Below are positions 8,737 through 63,258 of a DNA stretch of 64,000 nt, piece by piece. The DNA comes from a virus (taxonomy: Duplodnaviria; Caudoviricetes): IMG/VR virus record IMGVR_UViG_3300044846_003573; one strand, written 5' to 3'. Made by a program: the position numbers and the translations under genes. The notes beneath the pieces were generated by a model. It had not been told where the DNA came from. It did no database searches and saw only the letters and a list, made by a program, of their open reading frames with translations. Numbering within the stretch: position 1 is the stretch's first letter; each line of letters begins with the position of its first letter.

Positions 8737-10230
8737 ATGTCAAAATTTGATGAAATAATAAAAAGTTTAGTTAATGAAAGTTTAACTGAAAGGGCTAACG
8801 AAATTACTAGTACTATTAACAAAAAAATTGAATCAAATGAAGATGTTGATAAGTATGATTTAGAGGTTGGTATTGATTATGGTTTTGACGACGATGACGA
8901 GGATTATACGTTTATGAGAAGGGGTAAAAATTCGTCACACGGACCATTTCATTTTAAAAGAAATAAAAGAGGTAGTGAAACTGCCTTTGGAGAAAAACAA
9001 ATAGCAAACATGAAAAAAAGAATTAAAGAAGACCAAGACACTGATTTAGCATTAGCGTTAGATTCTAAAGATGTAAGAAGTGAAACAACTGAAAGACTGC
9101 ATGGTGGTCAAAAAAAATTAGATGTTGCAGAACCTAAAGGTAAACTGACTAAAGCGGATTTTTTAAAATTACAAAAAATGGAAGAAGAAGTAGAAGAAGG
9201 AAACGCTTTTACTGGAGCTTTATCGAAGGCTAAAAAAGAAGGTAAAAAATCTTTTAAAGTTGATGGTAAAGAATTTGAAGTGACTGAAGATTTAGGTGGT
9301 ATGGGATTAGGTATGGGACATGATGATTTTGAAGATATAAATCTATCTGATGATGAAAATCCAAGAGTTCAATCTTTAAAGAAAAAGTATATGAGAAATT
9401 ACCCTGAAGAAATTGACCAAGAAGTTGATTTTGTTTCAGGTAATGAAGAACCGATTAATTATAGAATTAAGATGGGTGATGGTGATTTCCTTGACTTAGC
9501 AGAATCTGAATTAATTGACATGATTGAAGAATTAGTTCTTGAAGAAAAAACCAAAGACAACCTTAAGAAGACAGGTAAATCTGCAGGAATGGTTCAATAT
9601 GATAGAGTTTCTAAAAGAGAAAAAAATGAAAACTTAAGGGCTAATAAAGAGTCGTTCAAAAAAATGGCGGATTATGTTAAGGATGGTTCTAAAGGTAAGT
9701 TTGAATCTAATCCTGTAATGTTCCCAAAGGGTAACGGTGAGATTAAGAAAATGGACAAGAAAGCATATGTTCCATCAGAATATGTTGATGAATATGTTGA
9801 CGCATTTGCTTACCCTGGTCAAACAAACCTTAGATATGATGAAGTAAAACCAAATGATGAGTGGATTGAAATGAATCTTAAAGGTCATTCTAAGACTGGA
9901 AACGCTCAAGTTGATAAAGATGGTAATCCATTAGGTAATGTTGTACCGACAAAGACAGGTGAAAGAATGTACAAAAATTTTGAAGAAAATTTATATGGGG
10001 CAGAACAAGCTGAAGCGTCATATAAAAGACAATCACAACCTGTTGATATTGCTGGTGAAACAACTCAAAAAGGTGGTTTAAAGAGAAAAGGTTCAAAAAC
10101 CTCGTCAATCCAAAAGGCTGATAAAATTTTAAATAACCTTGGTGAGTCAACTGAAAATGAATCAAGTAAGTTGTTAAACGAAGAAATGGAAAGTATGAAA
10201 AAGTTAATTGGTTATCAGTATAAAAAATAA
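8737..10230 (+). CDS. acidic/charged protein, possible prohead core/scaffold-like
   Basis: 497 aa, many (L/I/V)xE motifs; TATTTAT upstream at 8716. Confidence 0.55.
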   Translation: MSKFDEIIKSLVNESLTERANEITSTINKKIESNEDVDKYDLEVGIDYGFDDDDEDYTFMRRGKNSSHGPFHFKRNKRGSETAFGEKQIANMKKRIKEDQDTDLALALDSKDVRSETTERLHGGQKKLDVAEPKGKLTKADFLKLQKMEEEVEEGNAFTGALSKAKKEGKKSFKVDGKEFEVTEDLGGMGLGMGHDDFEDINLSDDENPRVQSLKKKYMRNYPEEIDQEVDFVSGNEEPINYRIKMGDGDFLDLAESELIDMIEELVLEEKTKDNLKKTGKSAGMVQYDRVSKREKNENLRANKESFKKMADYVKDGSKGKFESNPVMFPKGNGEIKKMDKKAYVPSEYVDEYVDAFAYPGQTNLRYDEVKPNDEWIEMNLKGHSKTGNAQVDKDGNPLGNVVPTKTGERMYKNFEENLYGAEQAEASYKRQSQPVDIAGETTQKGGLKRKGSKTSSIQKADKILNNLGESTENESSKLLNEEMESMKKLIGYQYKK

Positions 10231-41846: not shown

Positions 41847-41874
41847 TCGGAAATGTCCGAGACGTTCTTTGAAA
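41847..41874 (+). promoter_or_regulatory. boxB-like hairpin plus boxA-like antitermination element
   Basis: tcgga-aatg-tccga hairpin followed by GTTCTTTGAAA. Confidence 0.55.
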
Positions 41875-49985: not shown

Positions 49986-50156
49986 ATGAGCGACAAAACT
50001 AAATTTACAAGAACCTACGAAACGGACGAGACCATTGCTGTTTGGACTTATGATTTGGATAAGTTCAAGAACGGTCCGATTTCTGTTGACATCAAATACA
50101 AATACGACCCTGACAGGAAACTTTCCAACAGGGAAAAATACTCAAAGAAAAAATGA
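49986..50156 (+). CDS. 56 aa hypothetical protein, missed by ORF track
   Basis: MSDKTKFTRTYETDETIAVWTYDLDKF...; stop overlaps the next ATG. Confidence 0.55.
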   Translation: MSDKTKFTRTYETDETIAVWTYDLDKFKNGPISVDIKYKYDPDRKLSNREKYSKKK

Positions 50157-50725
50157 AAGTAATCTTTTTAGACCACGATGGAGTTATCTGTTTATCTGAT
50201 AACTGGGGGTCACGATTTAAGAAACAAAAAAAGGCTAGACGAAAGTTAAGTCAATCAGTAATGACAATGCCTCTTGATGCTCGTTTTGATAACTTTGATA
50301 AGAAAGCAATCAAGGTATTGAATGAAATCTTGGAACAGACTGGCGCTGAAATTGTTGTCTCTTCTGACTGGAAAGTTTGGTGTTCAGTTGAAGAGATGGG
50401 TGATTACTATGAGAAACAAGGTATCATCAAACGACCAATTGATTTTACAACCAATACGATTGATGGGGAAAAAGTTACCTGGCACCGAAATTGGGATTTG
50501 GAAGGAACAAGAAGTGTACAAATCCAAGAATGGTTAAAGGAACATCCCGAAGTTACACATTGGGTGGCGATTGATGATTTGGAGATGGGAAAGACTGGAC
50601 TACGTTACTCAATGGAATATGAACACGAATGGGGACTTGATAACTTTGTCTTAACACCTTTGAACAATGAGGGTATCAAACAACTTGGGGTTAAAGAAAA
50701 GGTATTATCCTTTTTGGAAGGGTAA
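50153..50725 (+). CDS. HAD phosphatase, RNA-repair (Swiss-army-knife HAD_SAK_2) type
   Basis: IFLDHDGV, IVVSSDWK, WVAIDD. Confidence 0.8.
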   Translation: MKVIFLDHDGVICLSDNWGSRFKKQKKARRKLSQSVMTMPLDARFDNFDKKAIKVLNEILEQTGAEIVVSSDWKVWCSVEEMGDYYEKQGIIKRPIDFTTNTIDGEKVTWHRNWDLEGTRSVQIQEWLKEHPEVTHWVAIDDLEMGKTGLRYSMEYEHEWGLDNFVLTPLNNEGIKQLGVKEKVLSFLEG

Positions 50726-50737
50726 TATTTATTTAAT

Positions 50738-51295
50738 ATGAAATACCTAATATCAGAGGAACAAAATAAATTTTTGAAGGAAGAGTTGGATAAACCAAAT
50801 TTTAAAAATTTGATTAAGAAATTGTTTGAGAAACAAGTTAGTAAAGGTGAACAACCACATATTAATGATATGATTATGGATTTCTTTGAAGTTGATGTGT
50901 GGGAAAGAGACTTTAATATCCTGATTGAATTGTTAAGGGATTTCTTGGGTAGGGAACAATCGGTTAAATTGACTGAAGAACTATTACAGAAAACCTTTAA
51001 AACAGACCGATATAACTTTTCAGGTGGATACAGTTTTGATTTCAGAGCTAAAATAATAGACCAAGAAGATGAAGAATATTTTAAAGTAGATGTTTATATT
51101 TTACCGGGTAGTGAGGTGGATTTAATAATGACAGGTGACGGAGTTCGTGATTTAAAACAAGCTCTTAACGACCAATCTATTGGATTTGAAATTGAAAGTG
51201 AAGTGAAAGAAATTATTGATGAAATTTTTACAGAAGAAATTACCTATAAGACTGGTGTTGTTGTGGATTTAGAAACACTTATTATTCAGGAGTAA
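50738..51295 (+). CDS. hypothetical protein (MKYLISEEQ motif)
   Basis: ORF; TATTTAT upstream. Confidence 0.7.
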   Translation: MKYLISEEQNKFLKEELDKPNFKNLIKKLFEKQVSKGEQPHINDMIMDFFEVDVWERDFNILIELLRDFLGREQSVKLTEELLQKTFKTDRYNFSGGYSFDFRAKIIDQEDEEYFKVDVYILPGSEVDLIMTGDGVRDLKQALNDQSIGFEIESEVKEIIDEIFTEEITYKTGVVVDLETLIIQE

Positions 51296-51951
51296 GGTAA
51301 CATATAATTAGTATTCACATGCCAACCCATCCAGTTAAAATCAACAAAAGATTTGTTGTTTGTTATATCCTCAGTTAGACATCCCCATATTAGCTCATCA
51401 ATATGGTGGTCAAACTTATCGTGAAGTATGTCAAGTATTTCATCTTCATCAAATCCATAGTAAACTTCACCATCTAATGTTATTTCCATAGATTTAACTA
51501 ATAAATTAACGTCTATGACAATCATTTCGGCATCAACTTCAATATAAAAGTCTTTAGAAAAACGACCTTCAAGAGTTATTTTTTTACGTTCATATTGGGA
51601 ATCTAATTTAAATGGTTTTCCCACAAGACAACTATTAATTTCATTTAAACTTTTTTGTGGGATATATAAATTATCGCAATCTAAATAATATAAAAATTGT
51701 GGAGCGATGTTAACCTCAGGAAAAAATTTTCTTAACGAATGTATTTCTTCATCAATGTAACCTGAGAGAGCTTCATGGGTGTATGGTAAGTTTTTAGGGT
51801 TTTCTATTGTATAGACAGGTACTTTTTTGTAATGAAATGATTTTTTTTCTTCACCTGTTAAATGCAATGTTATACCATCTGCGTTAATTACAGAAAACAT
51901 TTTAACAACAGTGTCCATTAATCTTTTTAGTTGTAATTCACTAGTGTTCAT
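51286..51951 (-). CDS. hypothetical protein
   Basis: ORF track. Confidence 0.7.
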   Translation of the reverse strand: MNTSELQLKRLMDTVVKMFSVINADGITLHLTGEEKKSFHYKKVPVYTIENPKNLPYTHEALSGYIDEEIHSLRKFFPEVNIAPQFLYYLDCDNLYIPQKSLNEINSCLVGKPFKLDSQYERKKITLEGRFSKDFYIEVDAEMIVIDVNLLVKSMEITLDGEVYYGFDEDEILDILHDKFDHHIDELIWGCLTEDITNNKSFVDFNWMGWHVNTNYMLPYS

Positions 51952-52006
51952 ATTATGTAAATAGTAATAATTTTATTTAAAATTTGAAACTAAAATGAAA
52001 AAAAAC

Positions 52007-52037
52007 TTGACATAAGAAGAAATTTATAGTACTTTTG
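52007..52037 (+). promoter_or_regulatory. tRNA-array promoter TTGAC-N18-TACTTTTG
   Basis: same spacing as the large-RNA promoters. Confidence 0.75.
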
Positions 52038-52065
52038 TAAAACAATTGATATTTAATTAGAAACA

Positions 52066-52179
52066 ATGAAACAGAACTCAACACATAACGTAAGTAATCT
52101 CCCGACAAACGTGGGCCAATCGTGGTTTACGATTAAGGGGCAGGATTGCCGTAAGTTCAGGGTTCTTAATAAGATGTAA
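52066..52179 (+). CDS. putative leader peptide, 37 aa MKQNSTHNVSNLPTNVGQSWFTIKGQDCRKFRVLNKM
   Basis: manual translation; A at -3; contains the antiterminator strand AAGTTCAGGGTT at 52153-52164. Confidence 0.6.
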   Translation: MKQNSTHNVSNLPTNVGQSWFTIKGQDCRKFRVLNKM

Positions 52180-52239
52180 TCGTATCATCAAATATATAAG
52201 GAAACCCTGGACTACAAAAAAGTTCAGGGTTTTTTTTTT
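52153..52239 (+). terminator. terminator with competing antiterminator (attenuator)
   Basis: AACCCTGGACT (52203-52213) can form 11 bp with AGTTCAGGGTT at 52221 (followed by a U tract) or with the identical copy at 52154. Confidence 0.7.
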
Positions 52240-52310
52240 GGGATAAAAGCACATAAGGATGTGCGGCTGCTAGACGGCAGAGGGCTTGGGTTCGAATCCC
52301 AGATATTCCA
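52240..52310 (+). tRNA. tRNA-like/pseudo-tRNA with 6-nt anticodon loop
   Basis: D stem gcac/gtgc, T arm ttggg-ttcgaat-cccag; anticodon arm ctgc-tagacg-gcag. Confidence 0.5.
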
Positions 52311-52315
52311 CAGTG

Positions 52316-52324
52316 GTTCTTTGA
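52316..52324 (+). promoter_or_regulatory. boxA-like element
   Basis: GTTCTTTGA at the start of the tRNA run; also at 41864 and 56396. Confidence 0.5.
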
Positions 52325-52338
52325 CGTATTGGGAAAAT

Positions 52339-52410
52339 GGTGATGTAGCTCAGAGGGAGAGCATCTGATTGTTAATCAGAGGGTCGGGATTTCGAAATTC
52401 CCCATCACCG
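52339..52410 (+). tRNA. trnN: tRNA-Asn(GTT)
   Basis: cloverleaf, loop tt-GTT-aa. Confidence 0.9.
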
Positions 52411-52420
52411 CAAAAATAAT

Positions 52421-52495
52421 GACTTCGTAGCTCAGCTGGTTTAGAGCACCTCACTTTTAATGAGGGAGTCGTGGGTTCGAGTCCCACCGGGGTCA
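52421..52495 (+). tRNA. trnK: tRNA-Lys(TTT)
   Basis: cloverleaf, loop ct-TTT-aa. Confidence 0.92.
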
Positions 52496-52571
52496 CTTTT
52501 TTAATTAGGTGGTAAAACATACGTTCAGGTGAACTTTACTAATTTTTCTGATATTTATTAATAAATGAATT

Positions 52572-53030
52572 ATGAAATTATCAGGAGTAACAAAAGAACA
52601 AATGTTTGAAGTATTATCTTCATCAAAATCAATGAGAGAAGTTATTCTTTCATTTGGATTACAACCTAATGGTTCCGGGGGATATCGGAACATTAAACGA
52701 AAAATAATGGAACTTGGGTTAGAAATCCCAAAGTATAATTACTTTGGTGAGGGTTCTAAAAAAAGAAGACATAATGATGAAAATGTTTTTTGTGAGAATT
52801 CTCAGTTTCCAAGACAACATCTTAAAAAAAGAATTATTAATAATAAAATAATTGATTATATATGCGAAAAATGTAATAATAGTGGGCAATGGGAGGGAAA
52901 TGATTTATCATTACATTTAGACCATAAGAATGGTATAAATGACGATAATAGAATTGAAAATCTGAGATTTCTTTGTCCTAATTGTCATTCACAAACCCCG
53001 ACATATGCGGGTAAATCAAGGAAAAAATAA
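52572..53030 (+). mobile_element. HNH homing endonuclease inserted between tRNAs
   Basis: CEKC..LHLDHKNG..DDNRIENLRFLCPNCHSQT; own TATTTAT motif. Confidence 0.9.
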
Positions 53031-53034
53031 ACAC

Positions 53035-53106
53035 ACGTCTGTAGCTCAGGGGCAGAGCACTTCTCTCCAAAAGAAGGTGTCGGGATTTCGAAATTCTCCA
53101 GACGTG
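53035..53106 (+). tRNA. trnW: tRNA-Trp(CCA)
   Basis: cloverleaf, loop ct-CCA-aa. Confidence 0.9.
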
Positions 53107-53112
53107 CAACAA

Positions 53113-53186
53113 GCCTCCATAGCTCAGCAGGTCAGAGCGACTGATTTGTAATCAGTAGGTCGTTGGTTCGATTCCGACTGGAGGCT
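53113..53186 (+). tRNA. trnT: tRNA-Thr(TGT)
   Basis: cloverleaf, loop tt-TGT-aa. Confidence 0.92.
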
Positions 53187-53193
53187 CTAACAT

Positions 53194-53268
53194 TCTCACG
53201 TAGCTCAGTTGGTTTAGAGTTTTTGACTGATATTCAAAAGGTCGTTGGTTCGATTCCAACCGTGAGAA
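53194..53268 (+). tRNA. trnI: tRNA-Ile(GAT)
   Basis: cloverleaf, loop ct-GAT-at. Confidence 0.88.
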
Positions 53269-53276
53269 CTTAAAAA

Positions 53277-53353
53277 CGAGTAGTTGGGGAGTCCGGTTAC
53301 CCCGCTTGCTTTGGGAGCAAGAGAACTCGCAGGTTCGAATCCTGCCTACTCGA
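53277..53353 (+). tRNA. trnP: tRNA-Pro(TGG)
   Basis: cloverleaf, loop tt-TGG-ga. Confidence 0.9.
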
Positions 53354-53360
53354 CTATGAT

Positions 53361-53435
53361 GGGGGTGCATGTACCAAGGCTTGGCGAGAAACACTTGCAA
53401 TGTTTCTGAGGTCGTTTCGATTACGACCATCTCCA
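53361..53435 (+). tRNA. trnA: tRNA-Ala(TGC), atypical D arm
   Basis: loop ct-TGC-aa; G3:U70 present. Confidence 0.8.
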
Positions 53436-53441
53436 CAACTT

Positions 53442-53515
53442 AGCCCCTTAGCTCAGTGGTTTAGAGCGATTGTCTTACAAACAATAGGTCGTGTGTTCGA
53501 TTCACACAGGGGCTA
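53442..53515 (+). tRNA. trnV: tRNA-Val(TAC)
   Basis: cloverleaf, loop ct-TAC-aa. Confidence 0.92.
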
Positions 53516-53588
53516 CATTAATCCGGTATAAATCAGTATTATTTTTACCGGAACAACAAAAAAGTTTGTATATTAGCAAACGAAATAT

Positions 53589-53661
53589 GGAGCGGTTACC
53601 AACGTGGTCAAGGTGAACGACTGAAAATCGTTTTATGAGAGTTCGATTCTCTCCCGCTCCA
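53589..53661 (+). tRNA. trnF: tRNA-Phe(GAA)
   Basis: cloverleaf, loop ct-GAA-aa. Confidence 0.88.
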
Positions 53662-53662
53662 C

Positions 53663-53815
53663 GAGGTCCTGAATTGACAGGACAACCCCCACCTCCGATA
53701 TGGCAGTCGGTCCGTTAATCCGACGAAGATGGGGTTTTTAAAAAGTGTCTCGGTACGCTCTGACGAAAGTCAACGACGAGGTCTCGGTGGACAGAAGGCC
53801 TCTGATTCCACCCAA
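53663..53815 (+). ncRNA. unidentified structured RNA(s) including an H-type pseudoknot
   Basis: gtcctg/caggac, aacccc/ggggtt, gtcgg/ccgac, tgac-gaaa-gtca; pseudoknot gaggtc/ggcctc plus ggtgga/tccacc (53778-53812). Confidence 0.5.
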
Positions 53816-53818
53816 ACT

Positions 53819-53894
53819 GCGGGTGTCGTATAACGGCTTATTATGACTGGCTTCCAACCAGTAGACGGGGTTTCGATTACCCCCACCCGCTCCA
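53819..53894 (+). tRNA. trnG: tRNA-Gly(TCC), CCA encoded
   Basis: loop ct-TCC-aa. Confidence 0.88.
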
Positions 53895-53899
53895 TATAC

Positions 53900-53986
53900 G
53901 GTCACGGCGCATAACGGCTGTTGCGCTACCCTGTCACGGTAGTAAGTAGGTAAACGAAAAAGTGGGTTCGACTCCCATCGTGACCG
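53900..53986 (+). tRNA. trnD: tRNA-Asp(GTC) with ~19-nt variable region
   Basis: loop ct-GTC-ac; unstructured A-rich expanded variable loop. Confidence 0.75.
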
Positions 53987-54053
53987 CAGGAAAAAAGAAT
54001 ATCACGGGTTCGATTTTAATGAAACCCGTGATATTTATAATAAAAGGAATGAT

Positions 54054-54875
54054 ATGAACAAGTGTTTGAATTGTGGAAAACCAGTGAAAAATAAATACTG
54101 CAATGTTTCTTGTCAAAATACTCATACTTGGACTGGAAAAAAACGGAAAAAAGAAAGTATTGAGAGACAAAAAGAATCTAATAAAAATCTATGGAAAGAA
54201 TTTGATGTTGAATGTTCGGTTTGTGGTAAGGAGTTTAAAATAAAAGAATTTAATGTTGAGTCCCCCAAAAAAGAAAAATACTATTGTGGTAGGTCTTGTG
54301 CAAATAAAAGAGTTTGGGATAGTCAACATAAAGAAAAATTAAGTAATATTTGTAAGAACTCTGATAAGGTAATTAGTGCTAATCGTGAAATTGGTAAAAA
54401 GAAAAAAGAAAAATCAATTAAAATTAAAAAAGGTGATTGTCTTTATTGTGGTGAGGCGTTGTATAAATCAAAAAAATATCATTCGGAATGTTGGTTGAAA
54501 TGTTCAGGGGGTATTAAAGAAGGTACAAGTCGAGGTAAATCAGGATGGTATAAGGGATATTGGTGTGATAGTAGTTATGAGTTGGCTTGGATTATCTATC
54601 AGATAGATAACGGACAAAAATTTGAAAGGAATAAAGAAGGGTTTGACTACACACACTCAAACAAAACTCGTAAATTTTATCCTGATTTTATATTACCTGA
54701 TAAAACTTATGTTGAAATTAAAAATTATAAGTCAGAATTAACTGATGATAAAATAAAACACTTCCCACATAAAATTGAGGTGATTTATAAAGAAGAAATG
54801 AAAGAAAAATATTTACCATACGTTACTTCAAAGTACGGTAAAAATTTTATATCATTATATCATAAAGAGGAGTAA
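54054..54875 (+). mobile_element. putative homing endonuclease (zinc-finger repeats plus PD-(D/E)xK/TnsA-N-like domain)
   Basis: CLNC..YCNVSC, YCGRSC; CDSSYE...FYPDFIL...YVEIK; own TATTTAT motif. Confidence 0.75.
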
Positions 54876-54921
54876 CTTGCGTAGGTGCCTCAGGGGACTG
54901 CAGCCCCACTACGCTCCATAT

Positions 54922-54992
54922 TGTCCTGTAGTGAAATGGCATCACACAACATTTTGGATGTTGTATTTCTGGTTCGAGTCCAGACGGGATAA
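54922..54992 (+). tRNA. trnQ: tRNA-Gln(TTG)
   Basis: loop tt-TTG-ga. Confidence 0.88.
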
Positions 54993-55034
54993 CTATTTTT
55001 TGTTTTATTAATAAACTTACCTTATCTTTGTATT

Positions 55035-55847: not shown

Positions 55848-55895
55848 AAAAGATTTGGTGGAATAAGAAAGTTGTTATATCTTTGTTGAAGTTCA
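55848..55895 (+). repeat. repeated promoter module (copy 2 at 56352-56399)
   Basis: AAAAAGATTTGGTGGAAT-n13-TATCTTTGTTGAAGTTC at both sites. Confidence 0.75.
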
Positions 55896-55922
55896 TTAAG
55901 AGATAAATAAAATAATTAGTAT

Positions 55923-63232: not shown

Positions 63233-63258
63233 AAACCCCACCTTGAGTGGGGTTTTTT
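63233..63258 (+). terminator. intrinsic terminator
   Basis: aaaccccac cttga gtggggtttttt. Confidence 0.75.

Follow-up and report, generated by a model that had tools for sequence, protein, structure and literature searches.

The whiB7/wblC attenuator of Actinobacteria works through an open reading frame lying upstream (uORF): efficient translation leads to a Rho-independent terminator, whereas slow or stalled translation leads to an antiterminator and to read-through (PMC10274678, PMC7157823). What the attenuator senses is set by the composition of its long and mixed uORF, which in M. smegmatis comprises 19 amino acids (PMC10274678). In a separate field, the purpose of phage tRNA genes has been debated for some 50 years, the main proposals being codon compensation and escape from tRNA-targeting defences (PMC10264068, PMC11555353). 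Here we analyse positions 52,007 to 52,239 of a 64,000-nucleotide stretch of viral DNA (IMG/VR record IMGVR_UViG_3300044846_003573; hereafter the window), where a candidate leader-peptide attenuator stands in front of a phage tRNA array. The initial annotation of this DNA knew of no described pan-codon attenuator controlling phage tRNAs; the whiB7 uORF is a published precedent for broad sensing of many amino acids, and the idea of a many-codon attenuator is therefore not new.

From its sequence and from comparison with relatives, we judge the element to be a ribosome-mediated (leader-peptide) transcription attenuator heading the phage tRNA operon, and give this reading a probability of roughly 0.72. 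The kind of switch is known; the variant, an attenuator predicted to gate phage tRNAs, would be new, and comparison supports it well. The initial annotation had proposed the order promoter, uORF, terminator, tRNA array. Its sequence features, from the promoter, uORF and duplicate through the terminator to the tRNAs from 52339, were all found where it placed them. The scheme itself stood but was incomplete, as a boxA lying after the terminator belongs to the design. The full unit thus reads promoter, uORF, switchable terminator, boxA, tRNAs, with the following parts:

52008..52038, plus strand: promoter, with TTG/TTGACA at 52008-52013 and a Bacteroidota-type -7 box, TACTTTTG, at 52031-52038
52066..52179, plus strand: uORF of 37 codons starting MKQNSTHN, a listed open reading frame (ORF), with ATG at 52066 and TAA at 52177-52179
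52088..52152, plus strand: long imperfect hairpin over codons 8-29 (-21.8 kcal/mol), comprising P3 (52088-90 with 52150-52), P2 (52094-52103 with 52138-52149) and P1 (52110-18 with 52123-31)
52153..52166, plus strand: R2, putative antiterminator 5' strand and upstream copy of the terminator 3' arm, in uORF codons 30-34
52180..52201, plus strand: nearly invariant spacer from the stop codon to R3, forming the distal part of the antiterminator stem-loop
52202..52213, plus strand: R3, the shared strand (terminator 5' arm and antiterminator 3' strand)
52220..52239, plus strand: R4, the terminator 3' arm (52221-52232), with a run of ten T (52230-52239)
52316..52332, plus strand: rrn-type boxA, GTTCTTTGACGTATTGG, 3' of the attenuator and 5' of tRNA-Asn
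52339..54993, plus strand: first tRNA block (Asn, Lys, (HNH gene), Trp, Thr, Ile, Pro, Ala, Val, Phe, Gly, ..., Gln)

Two alternative folds share one strand

The 12-mer AAGTTCAGGGTT has just two exact copies in the window, at 52153-52164 and 52220-52231, as had been noted from the sequence. The complementary stretch AACCCTGGACT (52203-52213) can pair with either copy over 11 bp, one of them a G-U pair, which bears out the proposal of two mutually exclusive partners. Of 5000 dinucleotide shuffles of the leader, only 1 produced a shared exact word of at least 12 nt, and 41 a duplex matching R2:R3 (-16.9 kcal/mol) in strength. The leader as a whole folds better than all of 200 shuffles (z = -4.5), and the terminator appears in this fold; it is a hairpin of 11-16 bp followed by ten T, upstream of boxA and tRNA-Asn.

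The two states are nearly equal in predicted stability. Taken separately, the antiterminator element has -19.9 kcal/mol against -19.2 kcal/mol for the terminator hairpin, and in a context that includes both they come to -21.2 and -22.0 kcal/mol, respectively. RNA cut immediately ahead of R4 adopts an extended R2:R3 stem-loop, whose apical part contains the stop codon; R2 ends 13 nt before that stop codon. The family consensus fold yields the same two states as the single sequence, and a stretch similar to that of the spacer, CGTATCATCAAATATA, follows the stop codon in a distant leader (L071). In full-length folds, AGAACUC (52073-79) also pairs over a long range with GGGUUCU (52160-66), which might make an anti-antiterminator. 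We did not rely on this pairing, since the columns concerned show no variation and the antiterminator displaces it in the cut RNA.

Promoter and uORF

Both promoter boxes are invariant in 20 relatives, the TTG-to-TA distance being 20 nt, and the spacer between them varies; this spacer and the 5' untranslated region (UTR) carry indels across close relatives. Transcription is predicted to start at 52043-52046 (about 52044). The TTGACA of the promoter that had been annotated ahead of the uORF is present, but its conserved partner is the -7 box and not a sigma-70 -10 element. A scan for consensus promoters and terminators did not list the leader promoter, whose -10 hexamer is weak by the sigma-70 rule. 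The same scan also failed to list the terminator, probably because extension of the stem through A-U and G-U pairs consumes the T run, and folding and conservation were used instead. The gene upstream of the leader is divergent (51286-51951, minus strand), and no TAnnTTTG box was seen between the terminator and tRNA-Asn, here or in relatives. The first tRNA block should therefore be expressed only by polymerases that pass the terminator.

The uORF runs from ATG to TAA over 37 codons, as predicted. It follows an A-rich 5' UTR of about 20 nt that lacks a Shine-Dalgarno (SD) sequence, as do 67 of the 68 genes in the window. Among 20 close relatives (distinct leader sequences from IMG/VR contigs, 83-100% identical, which we aligned), start, stop and length are intact in every one, so that the conservation anticipated for related phages is indeed seen. 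The frame survives even in L025, where 22 bases and 12 of the 37 residues differ. No indels have entered it at 17% divergence, whereas the flanks have them. The amino-acid changes look neutral, with at least 6 non-synonymous against 2-3 synonymous changes among close relatives, and a trace of selection on the peptide in the ratio of the two rates (dN/dS) was accordingly rejected. A frame that is kept while its peptide sequence is not fits the prediction for a leader peptide, and we infer that the uORF is probably translated.

Its codon usage is unusual. There are 29 distinct codons (null mean 22.6, P = 0.011), G+C at third codon positions (GC3) is 0.57 compared with 0.23 in phage genes (P < 5e-5), and codons rare for the phage are enriched (P = 0.009). 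The earlier description of 29 codons, many of them GC-rich, thus agrees with the statistics.

Conservation of the stems in close relatives

The terminator helix is 100% paired across the 20 relatives, with seven pairs that vary on one side only, and the antiterminator helix is 98.2% paired. In R3, the change of G52210 to A turns G-U into A-U with both partners; in R2 and R4, wobble pairs result from C52158 to U and A52226 to G. Within the family, pairing survives every change in R2, R3 or R4, except in L025, which loses four R2:R3 pairs (three of them at the distal end) and gains a shifted 9-bp pairing of GGGAACCCT with AGGGTTCTT (-12.7 kcal/mol, p = 0.015 versus shuffles). R2 and R4 are no longer identical in several relatives, yet both still pair with R3, so what is conserved is the pairing and not the duplication. 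The expectation that relatives would retain the duplicated 12-mer therefore holds for pairing with R3 and fails for exact identity of the copies.

Pairing is also kept in the 5' domain within the uORF. Its helices are 97-99% paired, with three compensatory pairs in P2/P3; P1 is paired in 98.9% of alignment cells and has five one-sided changes with pairing kept. We regard this domain as a candidate pause or synchronising hairpin. The initial annotation had nominated two other hairpins for pausing. The first, aatcg/cgatt, was rejected, as its closing pair is kept in only 8 of the 20 relatives, and P1 (52110-52118 with 52123-52131) is the better-supported candidate. The second, ggca/tgcc, is compatible with the data and competes with P2/P3.

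A wider class of boxA-anchored leaders

A class of comparable leaders was built from the contexts of boxA on viral contigs. Of 127 contexts, the 56 with a terminator no more than 170 nt upstream were analysed and reduced to 37 non-redundant leaders, which fall into several unrelated peptide families. Many of the 127 do not represent leaders, being situated within arrays, immediately behind a promoter, or on fragments resembling host rRNA spacers. Five matches on giant-virus contigs (L160, L162, L163, L165 and L166, with the pattern ATGAAACAGAAYTC...) have no leader and were set aside as chance. Each of the 37 leaders has a uORF that starts with ATG, spans 22-51 codons and in nearly all cases begins MK-, where shuffles lead one to expect 3.0, and its stop codon lies 21-38 nt before the terminator 5' arm (R3). 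The peptide sequences differ between families and the architecture is fixed. At least one Trp occurs in about 26 of 36 leader peptides, often in the contexts Q-S-W-F, Q-W-S or I-W-F, which is far above the usual Trp frequency; a slow single-isoacceptor codon, or else a G-rich stem, might account for this excess.

In 22 of 36 leaders, a uORF segment pairs with the leader's own terminator 5' arm better than in 95% of shuffles. The paired sequences differ by family, for instance GAGATGG with CCATCTC, AGTCGGGT with ACCCGAC, and GTTCGGGC with GCCCGAAC. The mean pairing energy is -10.6 kcal/mol between a uORF end and the R3 of its own leader, compared with -7.5 kcal/mol for the R3 of other leaders (Wilcoxon p = 1.9e-5). 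Measured from the end of the stop codon, R2 falls between -36 and +10 nt in all 22 significant leaders, where a uniform distribution would place 9.7 of them (p = 1.4e-8), and would therefore be situated under a terminating ribosome. No other evidence speaks as strongly as this covariation of the three-part design at the level of families for a role of the window's duplicate as a working antiterminator strand. The class of architecture seems broad.

The class also bears on whether translation is involved at all. A protein, a small molecule or an uncharged tRNA (in the manner of a T-box) might bind the 5' domain at 52088-52152 directly, making this a translation-independent, riboswitch-like leader with the frame as a by-product. 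The well-structured domain, with its compensatory changes, and the neutral look of the amino-acid changes would suit such a leader. On the other side stand the ATG frame in 37 of 37 leaders, the exclusion of indels from the frame but not from its flanks, and the tie between R2 and the stop codon. Moreover, Rfam gave nothing at threshold over 52000-52340, the only hit being rnk_leader (26.2 bits against a threshold of 50, E = 0.69), and none of the leader families (Trp_leader, His_leader, Leu_leader, Thr_leader, T-box) matched at its gathering score. We consider a riboswitch-like leader very improbable.

Proposed mechanism

In the leader-peptide attenuator that we favour, host RNA polymerase would start near 52044 and a ribosome would load on the SD-less uORF. 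R2 and R4 would then compete for R3 and, since R2 is transcribed before R4, R2:R3 should form unless a ribosome occupies R2. On naked RNA, or if the ribosome is missing, trails behind or has stalled in about codons 1-25, R2:R3 would thus preclude the terminator and the polymerase would proceed. It would reach boxA, presumably become Nus-modified and termination-resistant, and transcribe the untranslated tRNA array. A ribosome that keeps pace to the end of the uORF would instead cover R2, leaving R3:R4 and the U run to stop transcription at about 52238. The 5' hairpin may hold the polymerase until the ribosome arrives. There is no convincing anti-antiterminator (unlike trp), so untranslated RNA should read through.

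The initial annotation had proposed just this logic, in which a ribosome that has come to the end of the uORF hides the upstream copy and termination follows, and an earlier stall brings antitermination. The parts and their alternative folds, their conservation in relatives, the pairing across the class, the geometry of R2 and the match between leaders and tRNAs described below support it. The footprint of a ribosome extends about 13 nt ahead of the A site, so an A site at about codon 25 or earlier leaves R2 free. The suggestion that stalling at almost any codon frees the antiterminator accordingly applies to stalls at about codons 1-25 and not to later codons. A mechanism that depends on ribosome position would make the switch report the decoding speed of the leader codons, and the phage would probably make its first-block tRNAs mainly when ribosomes read slowly. 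The physiological trigger might be codon demand, starvation or tRNA-cleaving defences.

Transcripts across the terminator

Contigs from four freshwater or river metatranscriptomes span the leader, starting at 52069, 52082, 52113 and 52123 and covering it to 52238, and none of them reaches further upstream than 52069. Every contig that reaches the T run continues past it, one of them through boxA into tRNA-Asn. The flanking protein genes are represented in only one of the four runs, by a 109-nt piece at 51700-51808. The RNA contigs fit a start at the predicted promoter and real read-through.

They also help to weigh a reading in which the leader is a small gene or small RNA in its own right, complete with promoter and terminator, the tRNAs being made by leak-through or from other promoters and the 12-mer having no switching role. 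The strength of the terminator (11-16 bp and ten T) and the conservation of the unpaired spacer at 52180-52201 are in keeping with this, and the terminated RNA of about 195 nt could act in trans, like attenuator-derived small RNAs elsewhere (PMC6614838). In addition, three leaders of the class (L147, L075 and L125) have a second promoter between terminator and boxA. No such promoter box is seen in this phage or its close relatives, however, and the RNA contigs cross the terminator. The architecture is constant across families whose peptides differ, and within this family the peptide drifts neutrally; R2 tracks the terminator of its own leader and sits at the stop codon. Taken together, these points make an autonomous gene improbable.

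What the leader may sense

If the attenuator reports decoding speed, the codons of the leader should matter. We measured, for each leader, the fraction of residues whose tRNA isotype is encoded in the block behind it, and permuted the arrays among leaders. The match is 0.39 compared with 0.31 after permutation (p = 5e-5) and, for 18 non-redundant families, 0.45 compared with 0.36 (p = 5e-5). Small arrays can be strikingly matched: a leader with the motif DDAEE precedes tRNAs for Asp, Asp, Glu and Glu, and one rich in Thr, Tyr, Gln, Pro, Lys and Gly precedes tRNAs for Pro, Gln, Tyr, Glu, Lys, Gly and Thr. The leader in the window has no run of a single regulatory codon; the eleven amino acids of the first block account for 19 of the 24 codons from 2 to 25, where 57% would be expected (p = 0.02). 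Across the family, the sensed codons would be those served by the tRNAs behind the leader.

A broader proposal follows these data, which we put forward tentatively and at somewhat less than even odds. Bacteroidota phages may carry widespread demand sensors, each tRNA block lying behind a mini-gene written in the codons that it serves, to be transcribed, and then boxA-protected, only when those codons are decoded slowly. If this were true, tRNA supply would be under a closed feedback loop, and the switch would fire automatically when host defences cut or deplete tRNAs.

Several observations weigh against the attenuator reading or the sensing attached to it. The amino-acid diversity that the initial annotation took as a special sign is ordinary, both for the 17 amino acids of the uORF (P = 0.17) and for the run of 11 different residues (P = 0.16), and we rejected it as evidence for this leader. 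The high GC3 could be due to the requirements of the stems. The key stems are almost invariant in the close family, where the support consists of conservation and wobble changes and not of double compensatory changes. Within the class, the families are not fully independent in the tests, and one subfamily (L132, L141, L152, L155 and L101, whose peptides begin MKNTLRHM or MKTTNKHM) has the common architecture, with a conserved AGGG(T/C)ATTTTC where R2 is expected, but gave no significant R2:R3 pairing in the simple duplex test. The model assumes transcription-translation coupling in Bacteroidota. Finally, assembled RNA contigs cannot show 3' ends and may include DNA carry-over, and they report read-through only, never termination.

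Some of these points would suit the same switch reporting something more general. It might respond to overall ribosome availability or to transcription-translation coupling, as in host shut-off, early-to-late timing or antibiotic-like stress, and not to the supply of particular tRNAs; the leader codons would then be incidental or set by the stems. The ordinary amino-acid diversity and the coincidence of high GC3 with stems agree with this, as does the antiterminator state of naked RNA, through which any failure of translation would give read-through. What speaks for specific sensing is that leader composition follows the downstream isotypes across families, that small arrays such as that behind DDAEE are so closely matched, and that 19 of the 24 sensor codons in the window belong to first-block amino acids. 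On balance we think a purely general signal unlikely.

boxA and the tRNA region

The boxA 17-mer GTTCTTTGACGTATTGG is found in more than 115 viral contigs, mostly just 5' of tRNAs, and in more than 120 bacterial genome contigs, nearly all from Bacteroidota. In all five bacterial loci checked it lies between the spacer tRNAs and the 23S rRNA, and in Pedobacter, Flavihumibacter and Niabella between tRNA-Ala and 23S rRNA. This is the usual place of the spacer boxA in rRNA operons. The phage element fits the boxA consensus GYTCTTTAANA, which is gamma-proteobacterial, at 10 of 11 positions (PMC5725501). By analogy with boxA of E. coli, it would presumably bind NusB/NusE and yield a termination-resistant polymerase (PMC3177189, PMC5725501).

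The switch had been proposed to turn on the tRNA array, and this can hold for the first block; later blocks have promoters of their own, namely those of the internal promoter-plus-boxA units (about 56346-56406) and another near 62925. Behind the leader, the tRNAs are ordered differently from one relative to another, with Asn or Trp first. A degenerate tRNA-like insert separates the terminator from boxA in the window genome only. None of the 13 relatives looked at first carries it, and it does not belong to the switch; besides a mismatch in the acceptor stem it shows an anticodon loop shortened by one base, and ARAGORN did not call it. A distant leader, L071, also carries a tRNA inserted at the same spot. 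Further features of this part of the window, and a boxA-like element outside it, are:

52240..52310, plus strand: degenerate tRNA-like insert, terminator to boxA (Rfam tRNA 27.4 bits, below the threshold of 29)
52572-53030, plus strand: HNH endonuclease gene interrupting the tRNA array
54054-54875, plus strand: Cys-rich ORF without Pfam match, likewise interrupting the array
About 56383: internal promoter TATCTTTG, followed by boxA at 56396-56406 and a tRNA at 56419
55890-55905: degenerate boxA, GTTCATTAAGA, 3' of a twin promoter at about 55878 and 5' of a protein gene
41864-41874: perfect GTTCTTTGAAA boxA-like element
53900-53986, 56419-56501, 56756-56822, 57191-57271 and 60698-60802: extra Rfam tRNA-like genes, from 41.9 down to 24.1 bits
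63147-63255, plus strand: 24-codon ORF (MKKYICKL...) with a strong terminator (ACCCCAC/GTGGGGT and a T run), after tRNA-Tyr
50153-50725, plus strand: HAD_SAK_2 domain protein ('Swiss Army Knife' RNA repair HAD; E = 1e-23)

The HNH gene and the Cys-rich ORF are probably homing elements. The extra tRNA-like genes were not called by ARAGORN; some are long, and these may carry introns or odd arms. The element at 63147-63255 has a weak Rfam match to Trp_leader (E = 0.14), and no clear antiterminator was found there. The HAD_SAK_2 gene, about 1.4 kb upstream of the tRNA region, hints at tRNA repair beside tRNA supply.

Source and host of the phage

The phage comes from lake-water metagenomes, and the complete stretch is present in 14 DNA runs. 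The window has a G+C content of about 30%, and is thus AT-rich; the contig of a relative measures 242 kb. Near and distant DNA searches of GenBank phage records gave only tRNA-to-tRNA matches. Several lines suggest that the host belongs to the Bacteroidota, namely the SD-less genes, the TAnnTTTG -7 boxes in the promoters of other genes in the window, the identity of boxA at 52316-52332 with that of Bacteroidota rRNA operons, and a protein encoded within the tRNA region:

58142-58741, plus strand: protein combining a PKD-like domain with a type IX secretion sorting domain (CHU_C), a marker of Bacteroidota hosts

A motif close to ATATTTATAATAAA recurs 10-25 nt 5' of many ORF starts in the window, for example those at 8737, 25565, 43264, 46897, 52572, 54054 and 61944 (minus strand). 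It may be a phage-specific middle or late promoter with very short leaders.

Comparison with known attenuators

In an incomplete search of the literature we found no paper on an attenuator or a boxA before phage tRNA genes, which is absence of evidence only, and none, within the same literature, on a leader-peptide attenuator in the SD-less Bacteroidota. Were the arrays preceded by a conserved switch that senses translation, the tRNAs would be made on demand, and the leader codons would tell which demand is measured. The question of what phage tRNAs are for would turn into simple experiments with reporters and 3'-end mapping. To our knowledge, this would be the first attenuator whose output is the tRNA pool itself. 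It would also show phages borrowing the host rRNA boxA for untranslated tRNA operons, and add a leader-peptide attenuator in SD-less Bacteroidota.

Among described systems, whiB7 has the same logic and a leader of mixed composition. It governs a cellular transcription-factor gene and its leader is rich in Ala codons, whereas the phage element would govern untranslated tRNA genes, that is, the sensed molecules, and is followed by a boxA; the two have no sequence in common. The enterobacterial leaders (trpL, hisL, thrL and the multivalent ilv leaders; RF00513, RF00514, RF00506) share with it a promoter-proximal short ORF, mutually exclusive helices that have one strand in common, a stop codon placed so that a finishing ribosome can mask the antiterminator strand, and a possible pause hairpin within the leader. 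They differ in their runs of a single codon and in their output of biosynthetic enzymes, whereas the phage element has neither a codon run nor an Rfam match and has tRNAs as its output. Unlike the enterobacterial leaders, it also has no clear anti-antiterminator, so that read-through rather than super-attenuation is predicted for untranslated RNA, and its host would be an SD-less member of the Bacteroidota.

Two further systems resemble single parts of the unit. In boxA/Nus antitermination of rrn operons (PMC5725501, PMC3177189, PMC4807359) a boxA likewise heads a long untranslated operon, and the phage box is letter for letter that of the Bacteroidota spacer. Here it is on a phage, before tRNA arrays and just after an attenuator, a position from which the decision to terminate would precede modification of the polymerase. 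The toiL uORF upstream of topAI (PMC12121999) similarly reports ribosome stalling from a short uORF and activates downstream transcription; it does so through Rho-dependent termination and in response to antibiotics, whereas the phage element has an intrinsic terminator and a leader that may be matched to its tRNAs.

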